A DNA stretch of 64,000 bases from Candidatus Komeilibacteria bacterium (GCA_048538235.1 JBLYPX010000001.1:264013-328012), one strand, 5' to 3'; positions 7,267 to 23,851 are shown, numbered from the stretch's first letter. Made by a program: numbers and translations. Notes: a model not told the origin generated them from the letters alone.

Positions 7267-8880
7267 ATGCAGTCAAAAGAAACACTATATAATAAGTACA
7301 GACCTTCAACATTTGCTGATGTGGTTAACCAAAATCACATTAAGATTACGCTGCAAAATGAGGTGTCTAATAATAAGCTAGCTCACGCCTATATTTTTAA
7401 TGGACCAAGAGGTATTGGTAAAACAACCATTGCTAGACTACTTGCTAAAGTTGTTAACTGTGAAAATAGAAAAGAAGGGGAGTCAGAACCTTGTAACAAA
7501 TGCGAAGCGTGTAAAGAAGTAGATAGTGGAAAATCTTTATCTATGGTTGAAATAGATGCTGCTTCACAGACTAAGGTTGATCAAACAAGGGAAAATATTA
7601 TTGCTGCCTCTAGAATTTCTGCAAGCTCAGGTAAGACAAAGGTGTTTATTATAGATGAAGTACATATGTTATCTACAGCTTCATTTAATGCCTTACTTAA
7701 AACACTAGAAGAACCACCAGCTAAGGTTCTTTTTATTTTAGCTACTACTGAAATACATAAGGTACCAGAAACAATTATTTCACGTTGCCAGAGATTTGAT
7801 TACCATCGTTTATCTGTTACAGATCTTACTTCCTGGATGGAAGATATTTGTAAACAAGAAAAACGTGAAGTAAGTAAAGATGTTTTGCAAGCAATTGCTA
7901 AACAAGCAGATGGTGGTGCTAGAGATGCTTTAAGTATATTAGGCCAGGTTTTAACTTTATCTGAAGAAAAAATTAACTTTGATCATGCTTCACTAGTATT
8001 ACCAAGATCAGATATAAGGATAGTTTCAGATTTAACAGATTTTGTTATTAAAAGATCAGCAGCTGATGGTATTAATCTATTAAACAAATCTCTAATGGAA
8101 GGAGTTGATCTAAATCAATTAACAATGGATTGGATAGATTATCTACGTCAGTTATTATTATTTAAACTAGCCGCAGATAATAAGATACTACAGAATAATT
8201 TTGACAAAGAAGTGCAGAAAAAAATGACTTCTCAAACAGAACTTGTCTCTTCAGATCGTATAGTATTTATGTTAGATACATTATTACTTAAGTTTCAGCA
8301 GATTAAATTATCTTCTATACCACATCTGCCAATTGAATTAGCTATTGTAATAATGTGTGGAGAAGGGTTAGATATACCCCAGCCTCCTAAACAGGAAAAA
8401 CCAAAACAAGATAATATAGATCAACCAAAACAAGAAAAGCCTAAACAGGAAATACCTGAGATTAAGAGTGAAAAAGTGCCTGATCCGCCACCAGCTGTTA
8501 AGTCTAATTTAAAGCTAGACGATATCCAGCCGAAATGGCTGGACATTTTAATTGCATTGAAGGAATATAACCATTCTTTATCTGCTTTAATGAAAGTAGC
8601 AAGACCAGTTAGTTTTGAAAACAATATTTTAACATTTGGTTTTGAATATTCTTTTCATAGTGAAGTTTTAGCAGATGCTAATAAAAGACACGCCTTAGAA
8701 GAAATTATTAGTAAGCATTTAGGTGAAAAAATATCTATTGAAGGTATAGTTGATGAAGATTATAATAAAAGAAATGTTTGGCAAGTATTTATTGAAGAAG
8801 AAGCACCTATTGAAGAAAAACAAGAAGAAAAGCCAATTGAGCAAGACGTAGAGGTTGACGTCGCGGCTGCTTTTGGTTAA
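7267..8880 (+). CDS. dnaX: DNA polymerase III subunit gamma/tau
   Basis: N-terminal 'YRPSTFADVVNQ...', P-loop 'GPRGIGKTT', clamp-loader AAA+ boxes. Low-complexity PKQEKPKQ repeats in the linker. Confidence 0.92.
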   Translation: MQSKETLYNKYRPSTFADVVNQNHIKITLQNEVSNNKLAHAYIFNGPRGIGKTTIARLLAKVVNCENRKEGESEPCNKCEACKEVDSGKSLSMVEIDAASQTKVDQTRENIIAASRISASSGKTKVFIIDEVHMLSTASFNALLKTLEEPPAKVLFILATTEIHKVPETIISRCQRFDYHRLSVTDLTSWMEDICKQEKREVSKDVLQAIAKQADGGARDALSILGQVLTLSEEKINFDHASLVLPRSDIRIVSDLTDFVIKRSAADGINLLNKSLMEGVDLNQLTMDWIDYLRQLLLFKLAADNKILQNNFDKEVQKKMTSQTELVSSDRIVFMLDTLLLKFQQIKLSSIPHLPIELAIVIMCGEGLDIPQPPKQEKPKQDNIDQPKQEKPKQEIPEIKSEKVPDPPPAVKSNLKLDDIQPKWLDILIALKEYNHSLSALMKVARPVSFENNILTFGFEYSFHSEVLADANKRHALEEIISKHLGEKISIEGIVDEDYNKRNVWQVFIEEEAPIEEKQEEKPIEQDVEVDVAAAFG

Positions 8881-9977: not shown

Positions 9978-10895
9978 ATGGCTAAGAATAGGGTATTAAT
10001 AATTTACTTAGATGTAAGAAATAGCCTTAAACAGGCTGATTTAATAGCCTCAAAAATGCCAGAATTGGACTTACTTGCAGAGATAGTTACATTGCCATTA
10101 AAAGTTACGGAAGATTGTAGTCAGTTAGAATCGTGGCAAGCTATTAACGAAACAATCTATACTAATTATGACAGATATGACGGATTCGTAGTTGTGAGCA
10201 AGGCAGATAATTTAATTTATTCAGCCGTTGCTACAGACACTGCTTTTGAGAAGAATTATAAGCCAATTATATTTACCACCGCCTTACTTTCAGGCGGTGG
10301 TTTTAAATTTAAGAAATTATCTGATCTTTCTTTAAAAACTAATTTAATTAATGCCTTGCAGATAATTAATAGTAATATTAGCGATGTAATGATTGTCTAT
10401 GGTCAGAAAGCTATTCTAGCAACACTGGCTAGAAAGGTAAGTGTTTCTCATTTAAACTCATATGATAGTTTAACAGGTGAATATATTGCTACGGTAGATT
10501 TTAGTTTAGAGCTATTTGCTAAGCCTAATAAAAAGAATCATGACGTTATATTTAAAAATGATTTTGATGATAGAATAGCTTTGCTATATTTGCACCCAGG
10601 TTTTGTTTGGTCAAAATACAAAGAGGTGTTAAAGAAATCTAAAGCCTTAATTATTAAGAGTACGCACAGCGATGGATTATTAGATAAAGATATTAAATGG
10701 TTAAAGGATAATTTTGGTAATAAGCCAATAATCATATATAACAGATTAGGTATTGTTAGGGAGCAGCCATTGCCTGCTAATTACATTACGACTGACAGAA
10801 TGTCGTGGGAGACTATGATTATTCGAACTATGTGGTGTTTGGCTGCTAGTAAGTCTACAACAACATTTAAGAAAATATTTTTTCCAAAACAATGA
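9978..10895 (+). CDS. hypothetical protein with a weak asparaginase/glutaminase-like pattern; catalytic Thr motifs absent
   Basis: 'YDGFVVVSKADNLIYSA' resembles the asparaginase 'DG(I/V)V(I/V)THGTDT(M/L)EET(A)' block with the catalytic Thr residues replaced. Confidence 0.4.
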   Translation: MAKNRVLIIYLDVRNSLKQADLIASKMPELDLLAEIVTLPLKVTEDCSQLESWQAINETIYTNYDRYDGFVVVSKADNLIYSAVATDTAFEKNYKPIIFTTALLSGGGFKFKKLSDLSLKTNLINALQIINSNISDVMIVYGQKAILATLARKVSVSHLNSYDSLTGEYIATVDFSLELFAKPNKKNHDVIFKNDFDDRIALLYLHPGFVWSKYKEVLKKSKALIIKSTHSDGLLDKDIKWLKDNFGNKPIIIYNRLGIVREQPLPANYITTDRMSWETMIIRTMWCLAASKSTTTFKKIFFPKQ

Positions 10896-11458
10896 AACTA
10901 TTCTTAAGCATACAAGAGAATAGCTCAACTCAAGCTAAGATTTTTGACATTGATCGTGTATTAACAGATCTTGGCGTTATTGTTTTTACGCCAAAAGATA
11001 AAAGTAATATTTCTAACAATATTTCCTTTTCAAGGCTAGATGGTTTAGTAATAGCTGGGGGAGAGAATAACCAGGATGCAGGATATTTAATAGCGCTGGC
11101 TATCTCGCAAAAGAAGCCAATATTGTATTTACTAGAAAAAGGTCAAGCTCTGCCGGATGAATTGTTATATATTAAAAATAATAATGATGTTTCAAAATAT
11201 TTAATTGTTAAATATTATAACGATTGCAACATTAAAACTAAGATTACAGAGTTTCTAGATTTAATAGAAAACGGAGACTGCAGATGGGACGCACCTTCGG
11301 TTAAATTCACTTGGCGCATAACACCAAGAATAGAAAGATATTTAAGGTGGAAAACATCTGTTTCTGGTAAAACAAAGGCTACTTGGTTAAGAAACCATAT
11401 AGTCAAGGAGATCATAATGAAAGATGTAGAATACCAGAGATTTTTGCAATCAGATTAA
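10892..11458 (+). CDS. hypothetical protein
   Basis: 188-aa ORF overlapping the previous stop. Basic C-terminal tail. Confidence 0.45.
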   Translation: MKLFLSIQENSSTQAKIFDIDRVLTDLGVIVFTPKDKSNISNNISFSRLDGLVIAGGENNQDAGYLIALAISQKKPILYLLEKGQALPDELLYIKNNNDVSKYLIVKYYNDCNIKTKITEFLDLIENGDCRWDAPSVKFTWRITPRIERYLRWKTSVSGKTKATWLRNHIVKEIIMKDVEYQRFLQSD

Positions 11459-11459
11459 A

Positions 11460-11488
11460 TTTACAATATGTGTCTTTTTTAGTATAAT
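11460..11488 (+). promoter_or_regulatory. sigma70-like promoter of the hydrogenase/glycolysis gene string
   Basis: TTTACA, 17-nt spacer, TATAAT. The first ATG (11490) is only 2 nt downstream; a second in-frame ATG at 11499 would give a near-leaderless start. Confidence 0.55.
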
Positions 11489-11489
11489 A

Positions 11490-12482
11490 ATGCTACTTAT
11501 GCTAAAAAAAGATATAGATAAATTAGCAACTTTTATTGCTAAACAATACGCTATTTATGCACCCGTACCTGAAGATAATGATTTAATTGTTAAACGTGTA
11601 AATGACGTTTCAGAAATAGACTATTCTGCAAGGATTCCCAACAATACTTTTAAGCAGCTTTTCTTACCTTATGAAGAAGAGCTTTTTTCTTTTAAGAAGG
11701 GCAAGATTGAAAAGAATAATACTAAAGTTGAGCCAAAAGCAGCCTTTGGTATGAGTGTGTTAGATTTAAAAGCCTTAGGTCTATTTGATTTAGTATTCTC
11801 TAAAGATCCATATTATTTAGCGAAAAGAGAAAATAATATAGTTATTGGAATATCTTCAGGAGCTCCAGCAGATTATGAGGAGTATAAAGTATTTTCAATG
11901 AATAAAGAGGAGAATATTTTAGAGCACATTCCTTTTGATATCTTTCTTGAAAGAAACAATGAGAATGAGTTTAAAATATATTCTGGGTCAGTTAAAGGAA
12001 GAAAGATTTTAAAAGCAGCCGGTGTAAATGTATTTGAAAATATTCAATTTGCTGGACTTATTCAAGAAGAAGGACCTGATGAAAGAATGTTAAAATTAAT
12101 GCCCGTTGTTAAAGGATCAGAAGATAATCCTGTATGGGATGAGATAGCTAAAATATGTACAGCTTGTGGTAAATGTTCAACTGCTTGCCCAACTTGTTTT
12201 TGTTTTGATCTATTAGATGAATCACAAGAAAATGATAGGGTGAGTAAGAAAAGAGTTTGGGGTAATTGTTTTTATCCAGAGTTTTCACAAGTGGCTGGTA
12301 ATAAGAAATTCGTAGAAACTGTTAAACAAAGATTATTTTTTTGGTATGAGCATAAGTTTAGTAGAACCCCAACAGATTACAAAGTGCCGGGTTGTGTGAG
12401 TTGTATGCGATGTTTTAAGGCCTGTCCGGTTGGCATAAACATTATTGAGGTTTTAAGAAAATTAGAAAACAAAAATGATTGA
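11490..12482 (+). CDS. hydB: [NiFe]-hydrogenase (group 3b-like) beta subunit, 4Fe-4S ferredoxin-domain protein
   Basis: Two Cys clusters, 'CTACGKCSTACPTCFC' and 'CVSCMRCFKACP'. Adjacent to hydG/hydD/hydA homologs. The real start may be ATG 11499. Confidence 0.8.
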   Translation: MLLMLKKDIDKLATFIAKQYAIYAPVPEDNDLIVKRVNDVSEIDYSARIPNNTFKQLFLPYEEELFSFKKGKIEKNNTKVEPKAAFGMSVLDLKALGLFDLVFSKDPYYLAKRENNIVIGISSGAPADYEEYKVFSMNKEENILEHIPFDIFLERNNENEFKIYSGSVKGRKILKAAGVNVFENIQFAGLIQEEGPDERMLKLMPVVKGSEDNPVWDEIAKICTACGKCSTACPTCFCFDLLDESQENDRVSKKRVWGNCFYPEFSQVAGNKKFVETVKQRLFFWYEHKFSRTPTDYKVPGCVSCMRCFKACPVGINIIEVLRKLENKND

Positions 12483-13320
12483 TCCATATTTACCACAAAG
12501 AGTTAAGATTACTAAAATAAAAGCTGTAGCTGGAGACGCTGCATTATTTACTACTGAGTTTGTTGATTCGTCTGTACAAAAAAAGTTTGCTTTTATACAA
12601 GGTCAGTTTGCAATGGTGGGAATACCTGGTGTAGGTGAGTGTGCGCTAGATATTTGCTCTCCTTCTGAAAAGTCTACAAAGTATTTACAGTTTACAGTTA
12701 AACAGGTTGGTTTCTTAACAAAGAAACTAGTAGATTCTAAGGTTGGAGACATATTAACCTTTAGAGGTCCTTTTGGTAATGGTTGGCCTAATTTAGAAAA
12801 GCTCGCAAAACCAAACATATTATTAATTGCTGGCGGTTCGGGTGTAGCACCAATCAGAGGTGTAGTTGAACATATTTTAGCTAGTAAACATCAAAAGGAA
12901 AATTTAGTAAAGGTTTTGTGTGGTAGTAATGAAATAGATTATCTAATGTATCAGGATGAAATGCCTAATTGGATAAATAATGATATTAAATTGGGTATTG
13001 CTATAGATAGGCTAAGTAAAGCAACATCTATCGCTAATACTAAGGTTACAAAGGGGTTTGTTACAAATTTACTTAATGCTGACGATATAGACAAAGACTC
13101 AACAGTATTTATGGTTGGACCACCAGCTATGTATAAACCAGTAATAAAAAAATTACAGGAATTAGGGTTTGCAGATGAAGATATATTCTATTCCCTAGAA
13201 AGACGTATGCATTGTGGGGTAGGTGTTTGTCAACATTGTGCAGTAAATGATGTATATGTTTGTAAGGATGGTCCGGTTTTCAATGTAAATGATTTAATTA
13301 ATAACCCAGATTTAATATGA
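12475..13320 (+). CDS. hydG: hydrogenase gamma subunit, FAD/NAD(P)-binding oxidoreductase with C-terminal [2Fe-2S] motif (PyrK/HydG-like)
   Basis: Flavoprotein-reductase fold signatures; C-terminal 'CGVGVCQHC...C'. Confidence 0.8.
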   Translation: MIDPYLPQRVKITKIKAVAGDAALFTTEFVDSSVQKKFAFIQGQFAMVGIPGVGECALDICSPSEKSTKYLQFTVKQVGFLTKKLVDSKVGDILTFRGPFGNGWPNLEKLAKPNILLIAGGSGVAPIRGVVEHILASKHQKENLVKVLCGSNEIDYLMYQDEMPNWINNDIKLGIAIDRLSKATSIANTKVTKGFVTNLLNADDIDKDSTVFMVGPPAMYKPVIKKLQELGFADEDIFYSLERRMHCGVGVCQHCAVNDVYVCKDGPVFNVNDLINNPDLI

Positions 13321-14228
13321 TAAATAATAAAAGAAGAAAAGGTTTTCTATTTGTATTAGCAACAGCTGGTATATCTGGTTTTTCTATCTTTTTAAATAAG
13401 TTTGGGGTTGCTATGAATGACCCCTATGTATTTGCCGGGTTGAAGAATGTATTAGTTGGAATATTTTTTGTTGGAATAGTAATGCTAATTAATAAATATC
13501 CACTTAAGGAAATCTCTAAGAAGCAGTGGGTGTTATTAATCACTGTTGGATTAATTGGTGGAGCTATTCCATTTCTCATGTTCTTTAAAGGTTTGAGTTT
13601 AACCTTAGCAGTAAAAGCTGGATTTATTCATAAGAGTATGTTTTTAATAGTTGCTATGCTATCTGCATTATTTTTGAAGCAAGCACAAAATAAATATGTA
13701 TGGATTGGAATTGTTTCATTACTAATTGGCAATGTGTTGTTTTTAAATATTAAACCTCAGGTTTTAAATTTTGGTGATTTATTAGTATTGGGTGCTGTAT
13801 TGCTATGGTCTGTTGAAATTATTTTATCTAAGAAACTATTAGTAAATTTACCAACAAGTGTAGTGGCGGGTTCAAGAATGTTTTTTGGCAGTATATTTAT
13901 TTGGTTATTCTTAATATTATCTGGTAAGGCAATGTTGGTAAGTAATTTAAACCTAGAGCAGTGGGGTTGGGTTGGAATAACAGCAGTCTTGTTAATTGGT
14001 TATGTAGGTACGTTTTATTCAGGTTTGAAATATGTTTCTGCTGTAGAAGCTACGTCTGTATTAGCACTAGGTGCTCCTATTACCGCAATATTAACAATGA
14101 TATTTTTAGATAAAACTATTTCTGGTTTGGCAGTAATTGGCATATTGTTTATTACATTGGGATTGTTTGTTTTGTATAGAGCACAGAAGATTAGTTTAGG
14201 ACAATGGTCTTTAGTAAAAAACAAATAG
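13317..14228 (+). CDS. EamA/DMT-family transporter (10 TM)
   Basis: Two EamA-like five-TM halves. Entirely hydrophobic 303-aa protein. Confidence 0.75.
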   Translation: MINNKRRKGFLFVLATAGISGFSIFLNKFGVAMNDPYVFAGLKNVLVGIFFVGIVMLINKYPLKEISKKQWVLLITVGLIGGAIPFLMFFKGLSLTLAVKAGFIHKSMFLIVAMLSALFLKQAQNKYVWIGIVSLLIGNVLFLNIKPQVLNFGDLLVLGAVLLWSVEIILSKKLLVNLPTSVVAGSRMFFGSIFIWLFLILSGKAMLVSNLNLEQWGWVGITAVLLIGYVGTFYSGLKYVSAVEATSVLALGAPITAILTMIFLDKTISGLAVIGILFITLGLFVLYRAQKISLGQWSLVKNK

Positions 14229-14986
14229 AGCTGGTTGAAAAAACTAGAAGATTAAGTTTTAAGAACTTTGATAGCATTAAAATATCTGGAGATGGTGTAA
14301 GGATTATATCTAATATATTTTTAAACCCAGATTGTTTAATAGATATAAACTTAGATGAATATATAGATAAAGATGTATTATTGGCAGATCTTTCAAAACA
14401 TATAGTAACAGCAGCCCCAGCAACACTAGCACAGTATGCCCAAGATCATAAGAAGGAATACCTTTCTAGGGATGATGTTATTAAATGTTTTGCTCTTGAT
14501 CATTTAAATACAATTGAAAACAATGACATTATTAAATTAAAGGGTGCTAGTTATGCTTTAGCTCATGCTTTATCTGTAGCTAGGGTAGAAAATATTTATC
14601 ATAATAAAGGAGTTGTTGTGGCAGAGTTAGTGGCAGATAATATTAAGTATATAAATGTAATTATCCCAAATAATTTAAAGGTAGAAGTGGAAGATAGTGT
14701 TTGGCAACATTTTGGGGTGGTTATAGATAAGGTAAATGAAAAAGATAAGGAAATTATTTCTGAACAAGCACAACACCCAGAATGGCAAAGGATATTAAAT
14801 GAAGTTAAAGATACTATAATAGATTATATGGATGAAAAGGTTTTTGAAAAGAATGTTTATAAAAATATTATTAGTGAAATAGAGAATAGACAGAGTGGTG
14901 ATTATAAACAAGGAGCTGGTCAAAATGAAATTGATCAAGCTGTTAAAAATAATAGTAAGGTTAATAAAATAAAATTTACAAATTAA
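14204..14986 (+). CDS. hypothetical protein
   Basis: 260-aa ORF, no recognisable motif. Lies inside the hydrogenase gene string. Confidence 0.5.
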   Translation: MVFSKKQIELVEKTRRLSFKNFDSIKISGDGVRIISNIFLNPDCLIDINLDEYIDKDVLLADLSKHIVTAAPATLAQYAQDHKKEYLSRDDVIKCFALDHLNTIENNDIIKLKGASYALAHALSVARVENIYHNKGVVVAELVADNIKYINVIIPNNLKVEVEDSVWQHFGVVIDKVNEKDKEIISEQAQHPEWQRILNEVKDTIIDYMDEKVFEKNVYKNIISEIENRQSGDYKQGAGQNEIDQAVKNNSKVNKIKFTN

Positions 14987-15459
14987 TGAATAATATTTAC
15001 GAAGAAAAACAAAGATCAAGTATTATGACCATAGTTATATTTTTAGTTGTAGCTTTTGTTTTTGCAGTGACTTTAATAAGTAATTGGTTTGAATACGGAG
15101 AAGTTGCTTTTAGACAAGGCGATGAAGCTGCTTTTTTGGCCATGGCTGTAATTTTTGTATTGATGTTCATATTTTTCTACAATCTAAAGATTGTTATTAC
15201 AGAAGATCGTTTGGAATTCGGTTTTGGTATATTTAAGAAAAAGATTAATAAGGGTGAAATTAAATTAGTTACTGTTAAAAAGTTTGAATTTAAAAATTAC
15301 TGGGGTTATGGCATAAGACTTGGTAGATTAGATAAGTCTTGGGGATATATTGCAGGTAATGATAAAGGAGTATATTTAGAACTTGAGAATAAGAAGTTTT
15401 TCTTTACTACAGACAATCCAGAACAAGTTGTAGATTTAATTAAAAAAACTTTAATGTAA
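14986..15459 (+). CDS. small membrane protein with bacterial PH-like domain (DUF304-like)
   Basis: Two N-terminal TM helices followed by a beta-rich 'GYGIRLG...GVYLELENKKFFFTTDNPEQV' segment. Confidence 0.45.
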   Translation: MNNIYEEKQRSSIMTIVIFLVVAFVFAVTLISNWFEYGEVAFRQGDEAAFLAMAVIFVLMFIFFYNLKIVITEDRLEFGFGIFKKKINKGEIKLVTVKKFEFKNYWGYGIRLGRLDKSWGYIAGNDKGVYLELENKKFFFTTDNPEQVVDLIKKTLM

Positions 15460-16212
15460 ATGATTAAGCGTAAGTTAAAAATAGCAATTATTGGTTTAAC
15501 GTCCTGTGAAGGATGTGAATTTGCACTGCTGGATACTGGTAAAGAATTTTTAGATTTTCTAAAACAAGTAGATTTAGCAGAGTTTAGATTATTAGAAGAG
15601 GAGTTTGATAGAAATGAGTATTATGATATTTGTTTTATTGAAGGTTCACCAATAACAAAAGAGAATGTTAAAACTTTGAAAGAAGCTAGAGAAAAGTCAA
15701 AGTATTTAGTAGCACTCGGTAACTGTGCAGCTATGGGCGGAGTTCACGAGATAAAGAATTATCATAACAAAAAAAAGATAAAAGAATATATTTATGGTCA
15801 AAATTCAACTGTGGCTAATCCAGATATTAAAGAAATAGATAATATTGTTAAAGTAGATTATAAAGTTTCCGGATGTCCTATTAATGCAAATGAATTCTAT
15901 AAAATAGTATATGCTTTAATGAGAAATGAGAGGGTAAGTATTTTACAAAGACCTGTTTGTTTTGAGTGTCAAGCTAGAGGTTATGAATGCTTATTACAAA
16001 AAGGTGAGCCTTGTTTAGGACCTATTATCCTTGGTGGTTGTGAAGCAGTTTGTTTAAAGAGTAAAATGGCTTGTCAGGGTTGTCGGGGTTTATTTGAAGG
16101 AGCTCAAGTTAAAACTATGATGAAAAAATTAATTAAAGAACACGGCCAAGAGAAAGTTAATAGAATAACAGAAATTTTTGGCTTAAGAGATGAAATAGAA
16201 GAAAAATTATGA
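15460..16212 (+). CDS. hydD: [NiFe]-hydrogenase small (delta) subunit
   Basis: N-terminal 'IAIIGLTSCEGCEFALLD' FeS-binding motif and further Cys clusters ('CFECQARGYECLL', 'CQGCRG'). Confidence 0.8.
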   Translation: MIKRKLKIAIIGLTSCEGCEFALLDTGKEFLDFLKQVDLAEFRLLEEEFDRNEYYDICFIEGSPITKENVKTLKEAREKSKYLVALGNCAAMGGVHEIKNYHNKKKIKEYIYGQNSTVANPDIKEIDNIVKVDYKVSGCPINANEFYKIVYALMRNERVSILQRPVCFECQARGYECLLQKGEPCLGPIILGGCEAVCLKSKMACQGCRGLFEGAQVKTMMKKLIKEHGQEKVNRITEIFGLRDEIEEKL

Positions 16213-17459
16213 AAATACAAATAAATCATTTAGCAAAAATGGAAGGTCATGCTGGTTTTGTAGGACATATCTTAGATGGTAATGTCGGTAAAGCTAAGAT
16301 AGAAACACAAGAAGGCGCTAGACTTATTGAGGGAATGCTACTAGGGCGTCATTATATGGATGCACCTATTATCACTTCCCGCATTTGCGGTATTTGTCCA
16401 GTAGTACACAACTTAACAGCCATTGAATCTTTAGAAAAAGGATTAGGTGTAAAAGTTTCAAAGCAAACAAAAACTTTAAGAAAGTTAATGCAGTACTCAC
16501 AAATTATTCATAGTCATGGTTTACATTTATTCTTTTTATCTTTACCTGACTTCTATGGCATTTTAAATGATTTGCAGATGATAAAAAAGCAACCACAAGA
16601 AGCAGATATGGCTATTGCTATACGAAGGTGGGCAACAGATTTAATTAGACTAGTGGGCGGCAGGACTGTTCACCCTATTACTTCTGAGGTTGGTGGCTTT
16701 AAGACATTGCCAGCTCAAGCAGATTTAGATGCACTTAAGGATAGATTGCCAGATTTAATAGATAAGGCCACAAAGCTAGTAAAGCTATTTATTAAATTAA
16801 ACTATCCTGAGCTAGATAGAAAAACAGAATATATTTGCCTATACAATGAAGAAGAGTATGCAATATATAACGGAGATATTAAATCTTCAGAAGGGGAGAT
16901 AATTAGCAGTGCTAAGTTTAGTAAAAAGATTACAGAAATTAAAAAACAGTATGAGGCTGTAAAGAAAGCTAAATTATCTGGCAATTCATTTATGGTTGGT
17001 GCTATTGCAAGACTTAATAATAATTCTAAGCAGTTGAATCCTAAGGCTAAGGAATTATTAAAAGCCTCTGGCTTAAAACTACCAACATATAATTCTTTCT
17101 ATAATATCCTTGCTCAGGCTATTGAGTTGGTACACATGTTAGAAGAATCTCAAAAGATATTAAACACTCTAAAGATTAAAGAAGAAGAACAGGTTAAGTA
17201 TGAAGTAAGGGCTTGCTCAGCAGTAGCTGCTATGGAAGCACCAAGAGGAACATTATTTCACTATTATAGATTAGATAAAGATGGAATAATCCAAGATTGT
17301 AATATTATTACTCCAACAGCACAGTTTCTATATAACCTTGAAGATGATTTAGCAAAATACTTACCAGATATTAAGAATATGACTGCTAAGGAAAGAAGGC
17401 AGAAGATAAGATTATTAATACGCGCTTACGATCCTTGTATCAGCTGCGCAACACATTAA
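16209..17459 (+). CDS. hydA: [NiFe]-hydrogenase large (alpha) subunit
   Basis: L1 motif 'RICGICPVVH' near the N-terminus and L2 motif 'DPCISCATH' at the extreme C-terminus. The protein ends at the His, with no C-terminal extension. Confidence 0.9.
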   Translation: MKIQINHLAKMEGHAGFVGHILDGNVGKAKIETQEGARLIEGMLLGRHYMDAPIITSRICGICPVVHNLTAIESLEKGLGVKVSKQTKTLRKLMQYSQIIHSHGLHLFFLSLPDFYGILNDLQMIKKQPQEADMAIAIRRWATDLIRLVGGRTVHPITSEVGGFKTLPAQADLDALKDRLPDLIDKATKLVKLFIKLNYPELDRKTEYICLYNEEEYAIYNGDIKSSEGEIISSAKFSKKITEIKKQYEAVKKAKLSGNSFMVGAIARLNNNSKQLNPKAKELLKASGLKLPTYNSFYNILAQAIELVHMLEESQKILNTLKIKEEEQVKYEVRACSAVAAMEAPRGTLFHYYRLDKDGIIQDCNIITPTAQFLYNLEDDLAKYLPDIKNMTAKERRQKIRLLIRAYDPCISCATH

Positions 17460-17463
17460 ACAT

Positions 17464-17718
17464 ATGCATGATTTACACGAAGCAGATAGAATTCTAAAAC
17501 TAGTTTTAGAAAAAGCTGTAGAAAATAGATTAAAGCTTGTTAAAGAAATAGATATCAGACTTGGTCAAATAGAAGAGCATGGTGAAATTATTAATCCAGA
17601 TAATTTAAGATTTAATATGCTTAATTTAGCTAAAGGCACAATTGCTGAAAATGCTTTAATAAACATCTCAGTTATTGAAGGAGATAGTTGGGAATTAGTA
17701 TCTATTGACGGTAATTAA
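17464..17718 (+). CDS. hypA: HypA-like nickel metallochaperone N-domain, zinc-finger domain absent
   Basis: Starts 'MHDLHEA' (MHE-type Ni site). The pattern 'V.EIDIRLGQ...NLRFNM.NLAKGTIAENALINI' matches the HypA N-domain. No Cys residues anywhere. Confidence 0.6.
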   Translation: MHDLHEADRILKLVLEKAVENRLKLVKEIDIRLGQIEEHGEIINPDNLRFNMLNLAKGTIAENALINISVIEGDSWELVSIDGN

Positions 17719-17719
17719 T

Positions 17720-17923
17720 ATGTGCATGACTGTTCCGTACAAAGTAAAAAGCATTCAAGACAATACTGTTATTGGTATTGTAGCTGATCAAGTAAAAGAA
17801 TTTAAAACAGATGTTTTAGAAGAGGATATTAAAGTGGGAGATTATTTCTTAGCGCAGAATGGTTATGTGTTACAAATAATACCTAAGCAAGATGCAGATA
17901 ATTTAATGAATTTATTTAATTAA
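17720..17923 (+). CDS. hypC: hydrogenase maturation factor HypC
   Basis: Starts 'MCMTVPYKV...', the MC(L/I)xxP HypC signature with the essential Cys2. The ORF track's TTG start 17705 is replaced by ATG 17720. Confidence 0.8.
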   Translation: MCMTVPYKVKSIQDNTVIGIVADQVKEFKTDVLEEDIKVGDYFLAQNGYVLQIIPKQDADNLMNLFN

Positions 17924-19033
17924 ATGAAAAAGCTCAATCAATTAAAAAATATAAAAGATAAAAATATAATAGTACGTGTAGATTTTAATGTACCCATGAA
18001 AGGTAAAAAGATCATAGATGATTTTAAAATCTATGAAGTAATACCAACTATTAAACATTTACTTAAAAATAATGCTAGAGTTATATTAATTTCTCATCTA
18101 GGGCGCCCTAAGGGAAAAGAATTAAAATATAGTTTAAAACCAGTCGCTAAACATTTAGAAAATATATTGAAAAGAAAAGTAGAGTTTATTACAGACTATT
18201 CAAAGGTTAAAGATAATAAAGCAAAGTTAATACTACTTGAGAATATTCGTTTTGATAGTAGAGAACAAAAAGGTTCAAAGGTGTTTGCTAAAGAACTTGC
18301 TGAACTTGGAGATTATTTAATATTTGAATCATTTGCATCAAGCCACAGAAAAGATTCTTCAGTATATTATTTACCAGATTATTTAGAAACATATGCTGGT
18401 TATAGATTTGAATATGAACTGCAAAATTTAAATCTAAAGAAAGCAAAGGGTATGGTTGCTGTTATGGGTGGTGCTAAAATATCTACTAAAGTACAACTTA
18501 TTAATAAATTATTACCACAAGTAGATTATTTAATTGTGGGGGGAGCGCTAGCTAATAATTTTCTAAAAGCTTTAGACTTGCCAATTGGTAAATCTATGTA
18601 TGAGCCAGAGATGGTTAATATTTGTAAGAAATTGATTAATAGAAAGATATTATTACCAATAGATGTGGCAGTTGAATCAAGAAATAAAAGGCAAATAAAA
18701 CCAGTGTCTGAAGTTAAAAACTATGATAGAATACTAGATATTGGACCAGCTACTATTGAATATTATATAGATATAATAAAACAAGCTAAGTCTGTTATTT
18801 GGAATGGTCCAATGGGTATGTTTGAAAAAACAGGTTATGAAAAGGGAAGTTATGAAATAGCAATGGCTATTGCTAGCACTAAAGGTAAGACAATAGTAGG
18901 TGGTGGAGAAACATTAGCAATAATTGAACACCTAAAACTACACCAGTACTATAATTTCATTTCAACTGGTGGCGGGGCAATGCTAAAATATTTGGAAAGT
19001 AAAAATTTACCAATACTTAAAAAATTAAAATAA
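17924..19033 (+). CDS. pgk: phosphoglycerate kinase
   Basis: 'IIVRVDFNVPM' N-terminus; C-terminal 'GGGA' and 'STGGGA' nucleotide motifs. Confidence 0.93.
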   Translation: MKKLNQLKNIKDKNIIVRVDFNVPMKGKKIIDDFKIYEVIPTIKHLLKNNARVILISHLGRPKGKELKYSLKPVAKHLENILKRKVEFITDYSKVKDNKAKLILLENIRFDSREQKGSKVFAKELAELGDYLIFESFASSHRKDSSVYYLPDYLETYAGYRFEYELQNLNLKKAKGMVAVMGGAKISTKVQLINKLLPQVDYLIVGGALANNFLKALDLPIGKSMYEPEMVNICKKLINRKILLPIDVAVESRNKRQIKPVSEVKNYDRILDIGPATIEYYIDIIKQAKSVIWNGPMGMFEKTGYEKGSYEIAMAIASTKGKTIVGGGETLAIIEHLKLHQYYNFISTGGGAMLKYLESKNLPILKKLK

Positions 19034-19037
19034 TAAT

Positions 19038-20306
19038 ATGGCTAAAATACAAAATATAAAAGCAATTGAGATTTTAGACTCTAGAGGTAATCCAACTGTA
19101 CAGGTTACTGTAGAATTAGATAATGGTTTAAAGTCTAAAGCCTCAGTTCCGTCTGGTGCATCAACCGGTGTGCATGAAGCTTTGGAATTAAGAGATGGAG
19201 ATAAGAAAAGATTTGGTGGTAAAGGGGTTTTAAAGGCAGTTAAGAATGTTAATACAACTATTAATAAATTATTAGTAGGTGAAGATATTAATGATCTGTT
19301 GAAAATAGATAGTTTAATGTTAAAACAGGATGGTACAGAGAATAAAAGTAAATTAGGTGCAAATGCAATTTTGGGAGTGTCTCTTGCCTGTGCTAGAGTT
19401 GGAGCTCTTGCTAATAATAAACCATTATTTAAACATTTAAGAGATGTATATAAATTAAATAAGAAAGGCTACAGCCTACCAACACCACTTTCTAATATTG
19501 TTAATGGTGGAGAACATGCAGATAATAATCTAGACTGGCAAGAGTTTTGGATTATACCAGTTGGTATAAAAGAATATCCTGAGGCTTTAAGAGCTTGTGC
19601 AGAAGTATTTCATACTTTAGCAAAGGAATTAAAGGCAGCTGGTCACGCTACTAATGTTGGTGATGAAGGTGGCTATGCACCACAGTTAAATAATGCTAAA
19701 GAAGTTTGGGAAGCTATTCAAAAGGCTATAAAGGATAGTGGTTATAAACCAGGTAAACATATATTCATGGGAATGGATGCAGGTTCTTCAGAGTTTTTTA
19801 ATAATGATTCAGGTATGTATGAGCTTAAAGGTGAAGGTATAACAGCTTCTAGAGAAGAGATGATTGCTATGTTTGAATCCTGGGTTAAAGATTATCCTAT
19901 TCTTGCATTAGAAGATCTGTTTGATCAAGATGATTGGGAGAGTTGGGAAAATATAACAGCAAACAAAAAGTTTGAAAATATTTCTTTAATTGGAGATGAT
20001 TTATTTGTAACTAATGTAAAAAGATTACAAAAAGGGATTGATCAAAAAGTAGCAAATGCTATTTTAATTAAAGTTAATCAAATTGGGTCTGTATCTGAAA
20101 CAATGGCAGCTATAAAACTTGCACAAGATAATAAATATAAGATAGCTATATCTCATAGAAGTGGTGAAACAACAGATGATTTTATTGCAGATTTGGCTGT
20201 AGCAGTTAATGCTGAATATATTAAAACAGGTGCAACCTCAAGAGGGGAAAGGGTTGCTAAGTATAATAGATTATTAGAAATATATAACGAAATTAATGAA
20301 AAATAA
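19038..20306 (+). CDS. eno: enolase
   Basis: 'IKAIEILDSRGNPTV' N-terminus; 'SHRSGETED' active-site block. Confidence 0.95.
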   Translation: MAKIQNIKAIEILDSRGNPTVQVTVELDNGLKSKASVPSGASTGVHEALELRDGDKKRFGGKGVLKAVKNVNTTINKLLVGEDINDLLKIDSLMLKQDGTENKSKLGANAILGVSLACARVGALANNKPLFKHLRDVYKLNKKGYSLPTPLSNIVNGGEHADNNLDWQEFWIIPVGIKEYPEALRACAEVFHTLAKELKAAGHATNVGDEGGYAPQLNNAKEVWEAIQKAIKDSGYKPGKHIFMGMDAGSSEFFNNDSGMYELKGEGITASREEMIAMFESWVKDYPILALEDLFDQDDWESWENITANKKFENISLIGDDLFVTNVKRLQKGIDQKVANAILIKVNQIGSVSETMAAIKLAQDNKYKIAISHRSGETTDDFIADLAVAVNAEYIKTGATSRGERVAKYNRLLEIYNEINEK

Positions 20307-21855
20307 TAAATATAAACCAGTAGTATTAGCTATTCTGGATGGCTGGGGTTTAACAAAACCCAGTAAAGGTAATGCCATAGCAATAGGTAATACTCCTAAT
20401 ATAGATAACTTCTGGGATAATTATCCCCATACTACGCTGCAAGCTTCTGGTAAGTATGTGGGCTTGCCACGTAATCAATTTGGTAATTCTGAAGCCGGTC
20501 ATCTTAATTTAGGTGCAGGACGTATTGTTAAACAAGATTCTGTAATTATTAACGATGCAATTAAAAGTGGAAGATTCTTTAAGAACCCAGCCTTTTTAGA
20601 TGCGCTTAAGCATGTTGAAAAAAATAAATCGAGCGTCCATGTTATGGGGCTATTATCTGGTCAAGAATCCGCACACGCTGAGAGAGGACATTTGTTAAAA
20701 CTATTAGAACTCATTGAACAACATCATGTATCTAATATTTATTTACACTTGTTTACAGATGGACGCGATGCTCCACAACACGCTGCTTTAACATTTATAC
20801 GTGAAGTACAAAAAGGATTTAAGAATGGCGAGAAGATAGTTTCTATCATGGGTAGATATTATGCAATGGATAGGAATAAGACTTGGAGTAGAACAAAGAA
20901 AGCCTATGATTTATTAACCAGTGGCGTTGGTACTGTAGTATCCAGTCCTGAAGAGGCAATTTTGCAGGCATATAATAGAAATGAAACAGATGAATATATT
21001 AGGCCAACTATTATTGCTAAGGATAATAAGTCTAAAGTAACTATTAAAGATAATGACTCAGTTTTCTTCTTTAACTTAAGATCAGACAGGGCTAGACAAT
21101 TAGCAAAGGCTTTTGTACAAAAAGATTTTGCTAAAATGAATCCTGGTTCATTTCATAGACAAAGAATTCCAAAGAATTTAAAGTTTGTTGCTATGACAGA
21201 TTTTGGCCCAGACTTGGGTGAAATATTGGTAGCTTTTCCTAGTGAAGACGTTAAAGACACCTTACCAGTTGCTTTAAAAGATTATACTCAACTATATATT
21301 TCTGAGAGTGAAAAGTTTGCACACGTTACATACTTTTTTAATGGTGGTTATGCAGACCCAGTAAATGGTGAGGCTCGTATTAAAGTACCATCACCAAAAG
21401 TAAAGTCATATGCTATGAGACCTGAAATGTCTAGTAAAGAGTTAACAGATATTGTCGTGAACAGTATTAAGGAAAAGCAATATGATTTTATTTGTATAAA
21501 TTTTCCTAATCCAGACATGATTGGTCATACTGGTAATTTATTAGCTGGTGTAAAAGCTGTTGAAGCAGTAGATAAAGCAGTTGGTAAAATATATAAAGAA
21601 ATTGCTAAGCATAAGGGTAGTTTAGTTATAGTTGCAGATCATGGTAATGCTGAAGAAATGATCAATCTTAAAACAGGTGAAGTTCATACAGAACATACTA
21701 GCAATTTAGTACCGTTTATTATTGTTAATCATAATAAATATAAATTAAAGAAGGGGAGTTTATGTAATGTAGCCCCTACCATATTAGATATGCTAGATAT
21801 TAAAAAACCAAAGTTAATGGCAGCTAATTCATTAATTACAAGTAAGCATGTTTGA
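20296..21855 (+). CDS. gpmI: 2,3-bisphosphoglycerate-independent phosphoglycerate mutase (copy 1)
   Basis: 'PVVLAILDGWG', 'GNSEAGHLNLGAGR', 'FTDGRD' and C-terminal 'ADHGN' motifs. Confidence 0.92.
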   Translation: MKNNKYKPVVLAILDGWGLTKPSKGNAIAIGNTPNIDNFWDNYPHTTLQASGKYVGLPRNQFGNSEAGHLNLGAGRIVKQDSVIINDAIKSGRFFKNPAFLDALKHVEKNKSSVHVMGLLSGQESAHAERGHLLKLLELIEQHHVSNIYLHLFTDGRDAPQHAALTFIREVQKGFKNGEKIVSIMGRYYAMDRNKTWSRTKKAYDLLTSGVGTVVSSPEEAILQAYNRNETDEYIRPTIIAKDNKSKVTIKDNDSVFFFNLRSDRARQLAKAFVQKDFAKMNPGSFHRQRIPKNLKFVAMTDFGPDLGEILVAFPSEDVKDTLPVALKDYTQLYISESEKFAHVTYFFNGGYADPVNGEARIKVPSPKVKSYAMRPEMSSKELTDIVVNSIKEKQYDFICINFPNPDMIGHTGNLLAGVKAVEAVDKAVGKIYKEIAKHKGSLVIVADHGNAEEMINLKTGEVHTEHTSNLVPFIIVNHNKYKLKKGSLCNVAPTILDMLDIKKPKLMAANSLITSKHV

Positions 21856-23425
21856 AGATAGACCAAAGCCAGTTGTTTTAATGATTCTAGATGGTTGGGG
21901 AGCAGCACCGGCTGCTAAAGCTAATGCCATAGAACTTGCTAAAACGCCTAATTTGGACAGTTATGTCCTAAAATACCCAGTTGTAACCCTTCAAGCCTCT
22001 GGTGAGTCTGTAGGCCTTTCTTGGGGCGAAATGGGCAATTCAGAGGTGGGACATTTATCTTTAGGCAGTGGTACTATTATTTACCAGAGCTTACCTCGTA
22101 TAACTAGATCTATTGCTGATGGTTCATTTTATTCTAATGAGGAATTTTTAGCAGCTTGTAAGCATGCTAAAGATAATAATAGTTCATTACATTTAGTTGG
22201 ATTATTATCTGACGGAAGTGTTCATAGCTATAATGAGCACTTGTATGCATTATTAGAAGTCGCTAAACAACAAGATGTAGATAATGTATTTATTCATGTA
22301 ATTTTAGACGGTAGAGATACTTCATACAATTCTGGTGAAAAGTTTATTGCTAAATTGGAAGATAAGATAAATACAATTGGTGTTGGAAAAATTGCAACCA
22401 TTTCTGGTAGATATTATGCCATGGATAGAGATAATCATTGGGAAAGAATTAGTAAAACATATGCTGCAATGACAAAAGGCGAGGGAAGTACTGTTAAGAC
22501 AGCTAGTGAGGCAATTGCCGCGTCATATGCTAAAGGTGTTTATGATGAGGAGTTTGTGCCAGTAGTTATTGCAGATGGTCAGGCAAATATTGTTAAAGAT
22601 AAAGATTCGATAATATTTTTTAATTATAGAGCAGATAGAGCCAGAGAATTAAGCAAGGCTTTTGTTTTACCAAGTTTTGATAAACTTGATTGTGAAAGAG
22701 AGTATTTCCCAGATCTATATTTTGTTGCTATGACAGAGTATGAAAAAGATTTACCTATTAAGGTTGCTTTTCCACCTATCGCTATTGAAGAGCCACTAGC
22801 TAAGGTTATATCTCAAGCCGGTTTAAAACAATTGCATATTGCAGAAACAGAAAAATATGCTCACGTTACATTCTTTTTTAATGGTGGTAAAGAGGAAGAG
22901 TATGAAGGTGAAGATAGGGTTTTAATACCATCACCAAGAATACCTTCATATGATCAACAACCTAAGATGAGTGCAGATAAAGTAACAGAGAGTGTAATTA
23001 AGGAAATTAAAGCAGATAAGTATGATTTTATTGTACTTAACTTTGCCAACGGAGATATGGTCGGTCATACAGGTAATATTAAAGCAACAATTGAAGCGGT
23101 TGAGTATATAGATGCATCAGTTTCTAAGATAGTTGATGTTATTTTGGAAAAAGACGGCGTAGCTTTAATTACGGCTGATCATGGTAATGCTGAAGAGTTA
23201 TTTAATTTACAAACGGGTGAGATGGTAAAAGAACATTCAGTAAACCCTGTACCGTTATATATAATTGCTAATCAATTAGAGGGTAAAGCAATTCTGCCAG
23301 GCGTAACTCCTCAGAATTTAGCAAGTCAAGTACCGACTGGAATTTTATCCGACGTAGCACCAACAATAATTAAAATAATGAAATTAAAAAAGCCCGACCA
23401 AATGACTGGTACGAGCTTAATATAG
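21848..23425 (+). CDS. gpmI: 2,3-bisphosphoglycerate-independent phosphoglycerate mutase (copy 2, tandem paralog)
   Basis: 'PVVLMILDGWG', 'GNSEVGHLSLGSG', 'LDGRDT' and 'ADHGN'. Full length and diverged from copy 1. Confidence 0.9.
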   Translation: MFEDRPKPVVLMILDGWGAAPAAKANAIELAKTPNLDSYVLKYPVVTLQASGESVGLSWGEMGNSEVGHLSLGSGTIIYQSLPRITRSIADGSFYSNEEFLAACKHAKDNNSSLHLVGLLSDGSVHSYNEHLYALLEVAKQQDVDNVFIHVILDGRDTSYNSGEKFIAKLEDKINTIGVGKIATISGRYYAMDRDNHWERISKTYAAMTKGEGSTVKTASEAIAASYAKGVYDEEFVPVVIADGQANIVKDKDSIIFFNYRADRARELSKAFVLPSFDKLDCEREYFPDLYFVAMTEYEKDLPIKVAFPPIAIEEPLAKVISQAGLKQLHIAETEKYAHVTFFFNGGKEEEYEGEDRVLIPSPRIPSYDQQPKMSADKVTESVIKEIKADKYDFIVLNFANGDMVGHTGNIKATIEAVEYIDASVSKIVDVILEKDGVALITADHGNAEELFNLQTGEMVKEHSVNPVPLYIIANQLEGKAILPGVTPQNLASQVPTGILSDVAPTIIKIMKLKKPDQMTGTSLI

Positions 23426-23437: not shown

Positions 23438-23851
23438 TTAGAACAATAGCCAAGTAAGACCAATACCGATAATAATTCCAACTATAACTTCACTTAGACT
23501 ATGACCAGTTCTTTCATTAAGTAAAGGATATTTATATTCTTGTTTATCTGGCAATTCTTTAATAAGTTTATTTAAGATATTACCTTGGAAACCAATTTGA
23601 TGCCTAGTTGTAAAAGCATCCCAGATAACTATCATAGCAATAGCTAATGCTAATACAAAGATAGGGGATTCTGGGCCAGCTGTTAAATAGATTACTGTAG
23701 CAGCAGAAGAGGCAAAGGATGAATGAGATGAAGGCATACCACCATTACTAGTTAGGTGATTCCAAGAGAAATTTCCTTTAATAGTTTCAATAATTAGTTT
23801 TAATAATTGATTTGCAACTAAAACAATAATAGGTATTAAGTAAATTGGCAT
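23438..23851 (-). CDS. divergent PAP2-superfamily membrane protein (DUF212-like)
   Basis: 4-TM protein with 'MPSSHSSF' resembling the PAP2 PSGH motif. Confidence 0.6.
   Translation of the reverse strand: MPIYLIPIIVLVANQLLKLIIETIKGNFSWNHLTSNGGMPSSHSSFASSAATVIYLTAGPESPIFVLALAIAMIVIWDAFTTRHQIGFQGNILNKLIKELPDKQEYKYPLLNERTGHSLSEVIVGIIIGIGLTWLLF

Follow-up and report, generated by a model that had tools for sequence, protein, structure and literature searches.

Hydrogenases of the group 3b kind were reportedly first noted in bacteria of the Candidate Phyla Radiation (CPR) by Wrighton and co-workers in 2012. A later survey distinguishes two CPR-specific clades related to group 3b, hyd1, in which a small subunit of about 250 aa goes with beta and gamma subunits, and hyd2, in which the small subunit is truncated to about 164 aa (Jaffe et al. 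2020, PMC7304191); it also reports that the beta and gamma genes are sometimes not immediately upstream of the small-subunit gene, and that a hypC-like family lies nearby. All [NiFe]-hydrogenases are said to need six Hyp proteins for maturation (2025 review, PMC12134894), and where the CO ligand comes from under anaerobic conditions is an unsolved question. Here, we describe a hydrogenase locus in 64,000 nt of DNA from a Candidatus Komeilibacteria bacterium (GCA_048538235.1 JBLYPX010000001.1:264013-328012), this whole stretch being called the window (G+C about 32%, genes almost all co-directional). At 11490-23425, the window carries 13 tightly packed genes on the + strand, from hydB through a second gpmI, and the genes that split hydG from hydD in this string appear to form a conserved, hydrogenase-specific accessory set that sits where other CPR keep hypD, hypE and hypF. 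The original prediction, made from the sequence alone, had described a group 3b [NiFe]-hydrogenase cluster interrupted by three unrelated genes and continuing into lower glycolysis. The 13 genes are as follows.

11490-12482, + strand: hydB, beta subunit, AsrA-like (Pfam Fer4_22, E 1.7e-24)
12475-13320, + strand: hydG, gamma subunit, AsrB/PyrK-like, FAD/NAD(P)-binding and [2Fe-2S]
13317-14228, + strand: EamA/DMT transporter, 303 aa (EamA, E 2e-34)
14204-14986, + strand: hyp260, 260 aa, predicted cytoplasmic, CPR-specific; shares its first 25 nt with the end of EamA
14986-15459, + strand: TM157, 157 aa, two predicted transmembrane (TM) helices and a soluble C-terminal domain
15460-16212, + strand: hydD, small (delta) subunit, 250 aa (Oxidored_q6, E 5e-26)
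16209-17459, + strand: hydA, [NiFe] large (alpha) subunit, 416 aa (NiFeSe_Hases, E 3e-35)
17464-17718, + strand: mini-HypA, 84 aa, nickel-binding domain only, N-terminal MHD
17720-17923, + strand: hypC, 67 aa from ATG 17720 (HupF_HypC, E 1e-10)
17924-19033, + strand: pgk (PGK, E 1e-114)
19038-20306, + strand: eno, enolase domain annotated in orthologous loci
20296-21855, + strand: gpmI copy 1, iPGM domain annotated in orthologous loci
21848-23425, + strand: gpmI copy 2, tandem paralogue, 44% identical to copy 1

Every gene of the predicted list was found on the + strand and in the predicted order, and the genes do overlap or abut, with a spacing between consecutive genes of -25 to +4 nt across all 13; the first gene past the string starts at 23438 on the opposite strand. 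This spacing, together with the conserved synteny described below, points to 11490-23425 being one tightly packed and probably co-transcribed operon. The HypA-like gene and hypC that had been predicted as the only maturation genes after hydA are both present, but the start of hypC had to be moved: it is most likely ATG 17720 and not the disfavoured TTG 17705, because the tblastn alignment to other HypC proteins begins there and the translation from this codon (MCMTVPYKV...) restores the essential Cys2.

All four subunits of a 3b enzyme (alpha, delta, AsrA-like beta and AsrB-like gamma) are encoded in this one gene string. HydA carries the L1 motif RICGICPVVH (aa 58-67, nt 16380-16409) and the L2 motif DPCISCATH (aa 408-416, nt 17430-17456), with the stop codon directly after the His, and HydB carries two [4Fe-4S] motifs, CTACGKCSTACPTC and CVSCMRCFKACP, so that, with the subunit domains, the expected FeS, FAD and NiFe motifs are all there. 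More specifically, HydB matches the NCBIfam families sulfhydrogenase ShyB/HydB and AsrA (E 1e-28 to 1e-32, below the equivalog cut-offs), HydG matches the hydrogenase gamma family (E 2e-63) as well as the Pfam domains NAD_binding_1 (E 1e-10), DHODB_Fe-S_bind (E 3e-11) and FAD_binding_6 (E 8e-4), and HydD matches ShyD/HydD (E 1e-45 to 1e-46). HydA obtains 259 bits with ShyA and 249 with HydA, compared to 151 with VhuA and 131 with FrhA, the equivalog cut-offs for the alpha subunit being 700 and 880 bits. Its best match in the PDB is the alpha subunit of Pyrococcus furiosus sulfhydrogenase I (E 1e-66; 228.6 bits), and HyhL of Thermococcus kodakarensis reaches 219 bits, versus 176 for Mvh, 135 for the NAD-reducing Hox and 128 for Frh. 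The predicted group 3b affiliation is supported by these comparisons, as the sulfhydrogenases of Pyrococcus and Thermococcus beat the 3c, 3d and 3a enzymes and the four-subunit make-up agrees. By these matches, hydBGDA would encode a four-subunit, cytoplasmic, NAD(P)-linked [NiFe]-hydrogenase of 3b type, apparently a divergent one because the NCBIfam scores lie far under the equivalog cut-offs.

Among the 120 closest HydA homologues, every one with a source name belongs to Patescibacteria/CPR, and the closest GTDB genomes by large subunit are metagenome-assembled genomes (MAGs) of Patescibacteria. The window and all 120 homologues retain the four Ni-Fe cysteines as well as the Fe-S motifs. HydD, with 250 aa, has the full-length hyd1 size, and hydB and hydG lie 2.1 kb upstream of it; by comparison, the small subunit of the hyd2 locus L011 has 165 aa (comparison loci carry L numbers throughout). 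The window cluster appears to belong to CPR hyd1, and the core of the finding is therefore of an already known kind.

To place the genes between hydG and hydD, loci were gathered with large-subunit homologues, hyp260 homologues and a metagenome scan with the hyp260 alignment, and the 13 window proteins, HypD, HypE, HypF and other locus-derived queries were mapped on every locus by tblastn. The 27 distinct hyp260 loci examined all come from CPR and include both hyd1 and hyd2 types. Of the 22 loci whose upstream flank was long enough to judge, 21 have an EamA gene immediately before hyp260; a hydrogenase subunit was found in 23 of the 27 (the other four being contigs shorter than 2.3 kb), and a HypC gene was also found in 23; hypD, hypE, hypF, HydE or HydG were detected by tblastn in none of the 27. 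The typical order, hydB-hydG-EamA-hyp260-hypC-...-hydD-...-hydA-hypA-pgk-eno-gpmI-gpmI, persists in loci whose hyp260 is only 29-37% and whose HydA is only 45-50% identical (e.g., Kerfeldbacteria L009). Beside hyd2-type enzymes, the trio is rearranged as hypC-EamA-hyp260 in the other orientation (L011, L017 and L019). The EamA protein matches PF00892 in two stretches, corresponding to two EamA repeats; it is 46-52% identical to the hydrogenase-adjacent EamA of Kerfeldbacteria L009, of L036 and of the hyd2 locus L011, and its identity to paralogous EamA proteins encoded in the same locus is only about 28%. The hydrogenase-linked EamA proteins thus look like a distinct orthologous group. In the window, L005, L009, L011, L036 and L039, the second gene starts within EamA, overlapping its last 20-26 nt, which suggests that translation of EamA and hyp260 is coupled.

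Homologues of TM157 occupy the same position in L001, L004, L013, L015 and Buchananbacteria L039 (30% identity), and TM157 is absent in L005. Only weak, sub-cut-off Pfam matches were obtained for it, to DUF6773 (E 0.0045) and to bPH_5 (E 0.076 over 35 residues); of the two-TM, PH-like protein that had been predicted, the two TM helices stand, and for the PH-like character only the weak bPH_5 match speaks. The view of three unrelated genes splitting the hydrogenase is not supported, since EamA-hyp260 is a conserved module and TM157 recurs out to Buchananbacteria. An insertion unique to the strain, which would have indicated a recent rearrangement, is not supported either, as the EamA-hyp260 arrangement is widespread in CPR, with its 27 hyp260 loci. 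Other genes are found inside the hydrogenase string at a second position: a dehydrogenase of the Ldh_2 family (E 1e-81) lies between hydD and hydA in L009 (12691-13927) and also in L021, L027 and L028, and in L009 a 96-aa SemiSWEET-like protein is encoded there too.

The position between hydG and hydD differs in content from one locus to another, and three interchangeable gene sets seem to occupy this one operon slot in the CPR clade. The first set, in L007, L040 and L041, is hypF' (the C-terminal half)-hypE-hypD-hypC. The second, found in the window and in most loci, is EamA-hyp260 with hypC, in some lineages together with TM157; in a variant from Buchananbacteria (L039:7996-8754), EamA is followed by a DUF6390 protein (PF19927, E 6e-56) in place of hyp260. 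The third is a HypC-HydE fusion of 426 aa (L037:5175-6455, + strand) or a HypC-HydE-HydG triple fusion of 881 aa (L038:4619-7264, + strand), the latter reaching 633 bits with TIGR03955 (HydG; cut-off 312) and 363 bits with TIGR03956 (HydE; cut-off 254.6), with a CX2CX22C motif at its C-terminus. As L041 and the window have the downstream synteny pgk-eno-gpmI...DUF212-BacA-YceG in common, the slot types are best read as versions of one ancestral operon, in which the EamA-hyp260 module would sit where other CPR keep hypF'-hypE-hypD-hypC.

Some properties of the other slot proteins were also recorded. The HypF of the first set is a C-terminal half of 357-375 aa (L007:5935-7008, L040:5924-7000, L041:4043-5170) without the acylphosphatase, Zn-finger and YrdC-like parts; that of L007 matches positions 389-739 of the 741-position TIGR00143, and those of L040 and L041 have HypF_C Pfam domains only. 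The C-terminus of the DUF6390 protein of L039 (LEVKVGDYVSFHWNWF) resembles the VGD...H motif of HypC. In L037 and L038, radical S-adenosylmethionine (SAM) maturases of [FeFe]-hydrogenases are joined to the [NiFe] chaperone HypC in ordinary hyd1 operons, and neither hypD, hypE or hypF, nor HydF or an [FeFe]-hydrogenase, was found within 10 kb of these fusions. A literature search found nothing relevant on HypC-HydG fusions, DUF6390, HydG or HydE in CPR, hyp genes of Patescibacteria, or the maturation of hydrogenases in Parcubacteria.

The sequence of HypC varies with the genes next to it. The window HypC has Cys2 (MCMTVPYKV) and a Pfam score of 41.9 bits (cut-off 28.5), and reads LAQNGYV in place of the conserved His motif (H51 in Escherichia coli). 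All three HypC proteins encoded beside hypD (L007, L040 and L041) read (I/V)HAGFAIEK and keep the His. The motif His is missing from HypC in every locus read with the second or third gene set, namely those with hyp260 and a fully readable hypC, L039 with its DUF6390 protein, and both loci with HydE/G fusions, with sequences such as LAQNGYV, LSENGFA, FTQAGFI, LTNANLA and LYTTDFA. The 2025 review gives HypD C41, HypC C2 and HypC H51 as the proposed ligands of the iron on the HypCD scaffold, and activity is lost when these residues are exchanged (PMC12134894). Loss of the His where hypD is not adjacent is what would be expected if HypC no longer works with HypD, and HypC outside the hypD-adjacent loci may have ceased to be a partner of HypD.

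The second protein of the module, hyp260, has 23 homologues in a collection of 5.8 billion proteins, every source-named one from CPR, and the family has no Pfam or NCBIfam match. In its AlphaFold2 model (predicted local distance difference test score (pLDDT) 89.6, predicted TM-score (pTM) 0.88), aa 1-122 form a helical domain and aa 124-176 a barrel of five strands, with further helices at the C-terminus. Seven Cys, His and Asp residues are invariant in the alignment (C44, H66, C95, D99, H100, H121 and H169), a pattern that would be typical of a metal site, and H121 lies just before the first barrel strand, where HypC carries Cys2. In a Foldseek search against the PDB, no entry matches the whole of hyp260 and all matches are weak (E of at least 0.045); by probability and target coverage, the most conspicuous are HypC proteins, 2z1c and 3vyt from T. 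kodakarensis and 2ot2 from E. coli (probability 0.96-0.99, TM-score 0.54-0.86 on the HypC side, root-mean-square deviation (rmsd) 1.7-3.5 Å). An hhalign comparison with the HypC alignment places H169-F-G-V of hyp260 on the canonical H-x-G-F of HypC (E 3e-4), and the L036 homologue has a weak direct match to Pfam HypC (aa 127-186, E 0.067). In the model, hyp260 appears to hold an oligonucleotide/oligosaccharide-binding (OB) fold at about aa 124-176 that resembles HypC.

Two other identities of hyp260 were tried and rejected. A divergent HypD, which the stretches HPGC and SPHI recall by eye (compare GPGCPxC and PGHVS), obtains an hhalign probability of 0.25%; for DUF6390 (PF19927), none of the 23 family members matches and the hhalign probability is 3%. 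It is possible that hyp260 and DUF6390 have a HypC-like C-terminal element in common.

The large subunit is apparently made at its mature length. In all 120 closest homologues, as well as in the hyd1 enzymes of every slot type, the His of DPCxxCxxH is the last residue of HydA, so that the lack of a C-terminal extension seen in the window is general among its relatives; in the 428-aa precursor chains of P. furiosus and T. kodakarensis, the alignment stops at residue 424, leaving four extra residues at the C-terminus. An endopeptidase step is consequently unlikely for hyd1 HydA. Sensory group 2b hydrogenases and some group 4 enzymes are a precedent for maturation without it. The hyd2 large subunit of L011 (11120-12409, - strand) has a 7-residue C-terminal extension (…CASH-FLEVNWL), and an adjoining 124-aa open reading frame (ORF; 10759-11133) has a GN…D pattern reminiscent of maturation endopeptidases; searches of Pfam and of PDB sequences gave no match that would identify this ORF as HybD-like.

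The predicted HypA without a Zn finger proved to be one of a family, whose 72 cluster representatives nearly all have 79-87 aa. The window protein scores 28.6 bits with Pfam HypA (cut-off 28.9) over profile positions 1-69 of 112; M1-H2-D/E3 is kept, His2 being present in at least 90% of the family, and there are no cysteines and hence no CxxC Zn domain. Its AlphaFold2 model (pLDDT 91.4) has as top Foldseek match T. kodakarensis HypA (3a43_B, TMq 0.86, rmsd 1.8 Å), in an alignment that skips the Zn domain, and also matches HypA in the HypA-HyhL and HypA-HypB complexes, so mini-HypA is predicted to fold as the HypA nickel domain. Whichever of the three slot types is present, a hyd1 locus encodes it wherever the sequence extends beyond hydA (nine were read directly). 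Archaeal sulfhydrogenases use a full-length HypA with its Zn domain, HypB and HypC-F.

As had been predicted, hypB, hypD, hypE and hypF were not detected in the window: tblastn with CPR HypD, HypE and HypF found none in the 64 kb, and Pfam scans of about 50 window ORFs revealed none of the four and no NiCoT nickel permease. HydE and HydG were not found in the 64 kb by tblastn either, nor was an endopeptidase gene, and hypB is missing from the gene tables of L007, L009, L036, L040 and L041. A CorA-family divalent-cation transporter at 2391-3317 (- strand) is the only candidate Ni/Co uptake gene of the window; near it, at 3838-6375 (+ strand), is a gene for an 845-aa TrwB/TraG-like type IV coupling protein.

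Downstream of the hydrogenase, the string runs without a gap into pgk-eno-gpmI-gpmI, as the original prediction had said, and this arrangement is conserved: the order hydA-hypA-(hypC)-pgk-eno-gpmI-gpmI recurs in most loci of sufficient length, even where HydA identity is as low as about 45-50%. The same glycolysis order after hydA-hypA was found in L002, L003, L009, L023, L027, L032, L033, L036-L039 and L041. Since the gpmI pair stands in tandem after eno in most CPR loci, the duplication is presumably old, with both copies kept. The conserved synteny supports a coupling, at the level of the operon, of the hydrogenase to ATP-yielding fermentation. Such a coupling would agree with the usual reading of CPR 3b enzymes, although gene order gives no reaction direction, and a role as a fermentative H2 valve is a reasonable reading of the gene packing and the conserved synteny.

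Several particulars of this region were seen in passing. The two gpmI copies both keep the GNSE(A/V)GH, DGRD and ADHGN motifs (by eye). In L036, the string runs on into genes for PfkB, a PduL-type phosphotransacylase and acetate kinase. In two Patescibacteria MAGs, a hydA (51-52% identical, Ni-Fe cysteines intact) and mini-HypA stand directly before pgk-eno-gpmI-gpmI (L002:2669-4249, L003:1059-2697) with no hydB, hydG, hydD or hypC within the DNA examined; upstream of hydA are a DNA methylase and an NYN-like gene in L002, up to the contig end, and an unrelated 295-aa gene in L003. Between hypC and pgk, a giant ORF with no confident Pfam family lies in L001 (11718-16235, 1505 aa) and L004 (11755-15777, 1340 aa); neither the window nor L013 has it.

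The ratio of nonsynonymous to synonymous substitution rates (dN/dS), computed against L013, L001 and L004, indicates purifying selection on all 15 genes, those of the string together with the two upstream of it (about 0.04-0.34). Values were 0.05-0.07 for hydA, 0.04-0.05 for hydD, 0.15 for EamA, 0.23-0.30 for hyp260, 0.04-0.12 for hypA and 0.11-0.34 for hypC.

On balance, the operon probably unites a hyd1 hydrogenase, a lineage-specific maturation set and lower glycolysis, with EamA, hyp260, the HypC without its His and, in some lineages, TM157 belonging to the maturation set. Drawing on the gene content, the conserved architecture, the purifying selection, the folds and the co-variation of the HypC His with the neighbouring genes, we infer the functional steps of the module, and the direction of the enzyme, as follows. 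In hyp260, the HypC-like OB fold, which keeps the His, and the Cys/His-rich helical domain would act together with HypC as a carrier or scaffold handling the iron half of the active site. The transporter EamA would move a small molecule for the iron step, either a ligand precursor or a metal chelate. Nickel would be delivered by mini-HypA, lacking its Zn domain, and no endopeptidase step would follow, HydA being made at mature length. Co-expressed with the lower, ATP-yielding part of glycolysis, the completed enzyme would most likely re-oxidise NAD(P)H from sugar fermentation and release H2. That the EamA-hyp260 module serves the maturation of the iron half of the active site is a proposal in which we have moderate confidence.

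A number of observations weigh against this explanation. In the close relative L004, whose HydA is 81% identical, the genes for the hydrogenase, mini-HypA and HypC are retained but EamA and hyp260 are missing from this place, which argues against a need for the module in cis; the module may be dispensable altogether, or located elsewhere in the L004 genome. The similarity between hyp260 and HypC is local and modest (hhalign probability 38%), and generic OB folds are matched by hyp260 as well (Foldseek E about 0.04-0.3). The co-variation with the HypC His includes only three loci of the hypFEDC type, versus more than 20 others. If hypD, hypE and hypF are encoded elsewhere in the genome of about 860 kb, the module would be an accessory to them and not a replacement. 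As for the role of the enzyme, the gene for GAPDH, the NADH-producing step of glycolysis, is not in the operon, and the NCBIfam scores far below the equivalog cut-offs leave NADPH, NADH and polysulfide all as candidates for its physiological partner. In the place of the module, L004 has a 221-aa ORF (8023-8688) that faintly resembles the C-terminal portion of one hyp260 homologue (30% over 81 aa) and may be a remnant or a replacement.

A stronger version of the explanation is that genomes with the His-less HypC, EamA and hyp260 have no hypD, hypE or hypF anywhere, the Fe(CN)2CO half being made or acquired without them, on a scaffold of hyp260 and HypC and from a precursor that EamA imports, possibly from a host. 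We regard this version as doubtful, though still worth entertaining, and give the same low credence to the simpler statement that the module replaces HypD, HypE and HypF altogether.

Rather unlikely, in our view, is that the module serves nickel supply, with EamA importing nickel or a nickel chelate, hyp260 acting as a nickel chaperone that replaces HypB and feeds mini-HypA, and the iron half made by ordinary HypC, HypD, HypE and HypF encoded elsewhere. The lack of HypB and of a NiCoT-type permease in the window, and of hypB in the five gene tables listed above, would fit such a role, as would the invariant Cys, His and Asp residues of hyp260, typical of Ni/Zn sites, and the loss of the HypA Zn domain, by which nickel handling is clearly altered in the clade. 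However, the hypFEDC loci have mini-HypA without HypB as well, which means that the module alternates with hypF, hypE and hypD and not with HypB. In addition, the module travels with HypC, an iron-side chaperone, the Fe-binding His of HypC is lost exactly where hypD is not adjacent, and the folded core of hyp260 is like HypC and not like HypB, SlyD or HypA.

It is less likely still that EamA, hyp260 and TM157 are unrelated to the hydrogenase and are kept beside it by frozen synteny in streamlined genomes, for example as an amino-acid or thiol exporter with its partner, or as a sulfur-handling set tied to a sulfhydrogenase side activity. CPR genomes are compact and contain long runs of genes in one direction, genes of other, unrelated kinds do occur in these operons (serpin, Ldh_2, SemiSWEET, NUDIX, HIT and PAP2), and the close relative L004 lacks EamA and hyp260; with AsrA/AsrB-like beta and gamma subunits, a link to sulfur is also conceivable (PMC7304191). 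Yet the other intercalated genes differ from locus to locus, while EamA, hyp260 and HypC are constant across 45-87% HydA identity, and the module recurs, rearranged, by hyd2-type enzymes that have no beta and gamma subunits. Homologues of hyp260 were found in no other context, with EamA directly upstream of nearly all those that could be judged, and both the resemblance of its fold to HypC and the complementary pattern of His residues speak for a role in maturation. A decaying enzyme that receives no cofactor for want of hypD, hypE and hypF, or that has taken on a redox role other than H2, is very improbable, since, despite the lack of hypB, hypD, hypE and hypF in the 64 kb and the retention in L002 and L003 of only a large subunit and mini-HypA next to pgk, the four hydrogenase subunits (dN/dS 0.04-0.10) are among the genes of the string under the strongest purifying selection, mini-HypA and HypC are also constrained, and the Ni-Fe cysteines and Fe-S motifs are intact throughout the closest homologues.

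Upstream of hydB, the following features adjoin the operon.

9978-10895, + strand: asparaginase-family gene, 305 aa (Pfam Asparaginase, E 1.4e-17)
10892-11458, + strand: 188-aa gene without a family, directly before hydB, with a 31-nt gap to it
11460-11488, + strand: strongest sigma-70-like promoter match in this region, TTTACA-17-TATAAT, agreeing with the consensus at 11 of 12 positions

In the scan for promoters and terminators, the total of promoter-like sites was not above that of shuffled sequence, and only the site before hydB was notable. The asparaginase-family gene and the 188-aa gene, which overlap by 4 nt, stand directly before hydB also in L001, L004, L005, L006 and L014; the pair is kept in all Komeilibacteria-like relatives (HydA identity of at least 69%), with dN/dS of 0.04-0.10. 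The two genes may or may not share a transcription unit with hydB.

The enzyme and its patchy operon layout have already been described for CPR (PMC7304191). The main text of that study nowhere names EamA, a permease, DMT or maturation and does not analyse the genes between the subunits; it makes no mention of an EamA-hyp260 module or of alternative slot contents, nor of a large subunit without C-terminal extension, a HypA without Zn domain or an association with pgk-eno-gpmI. What is new here is that the genes of the slot form a conserved accessory module, consisting of a HypC-like protein and a dedicated transporter, that alternates with hypF'ED and with HypC-HydE-HydG, and that the presence of this module appears to co-vary with the loss of the HypC histidine. 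The three gene sets of the slot, the first of them canonical, offer concrete candidates for alternative routes of Fe(CN)2CO assembly; on the stronger version regarded as doubtful above, the HypC-HydE-HydG fusion would mean that radical-SAM maturases of the [FeFe] type can build a [NiFe] site. A large subunit of mature length and a HypA cut down to its nickel domain make a naturally minimal system, which could ease the heterologous production of [NiFe]-hydrogenases. In many lineages of CPR, the operon itself would tie H2 metabolism to the half of glycolysis that yields ATP.

In comparison with known systems, the locus is closest to the CPR hyd1 clusters, with which it shares named CPR proteins as closest large subunits, a small subunit of about 250 aa and co-located beta and gamma genes. 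The sulfhydrogenases SH-I and SH-II of P. furiosus (PDB 9e1j, 9e15 and 9nez) and Hyh of T. kodakarensis (HyhL, 5yxy) share the alpha-beta-gamma-delta design; these archaeal enzymes are the best sequence match for all four window subunits, and the L1 and L2 cysteine motifs agree. The window alpha subunit, unlike theirs, remains at 259 bits against the 700-bit cut-off, and CPR hyd1 HydA stops at the His, whereas the archaeal 3b precursor chains are four residues longer. With the canonical set of HypA-F and an endopeptidase (PMC12134894), the window shares a HypC with Cys2 and the nickel domain of HypA, encoded right after hydA; it differs in that HypA has no Zn domain, HypC has no equivalent of His51, and hyp260 and EamA are found instead of hypB, hypD, hypE, hypF and an endopeptidase gene in the 64 kb. 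Additional HypC-like or scaffold proteins have a precedent in HupF/HoxL and HupK/HoxV of O2-tolerant hydrogenases, which are inserted between HypCD and the large subunit and carry the Fe(CN)2CO group (PMC12134894). No sequence relation of hyp260 to these proteins is detectable; unlike them, it combines a helical Cys/His domain with an internal OB fold, is paired with a membrane transporter, and is found in anaerobic CPR.

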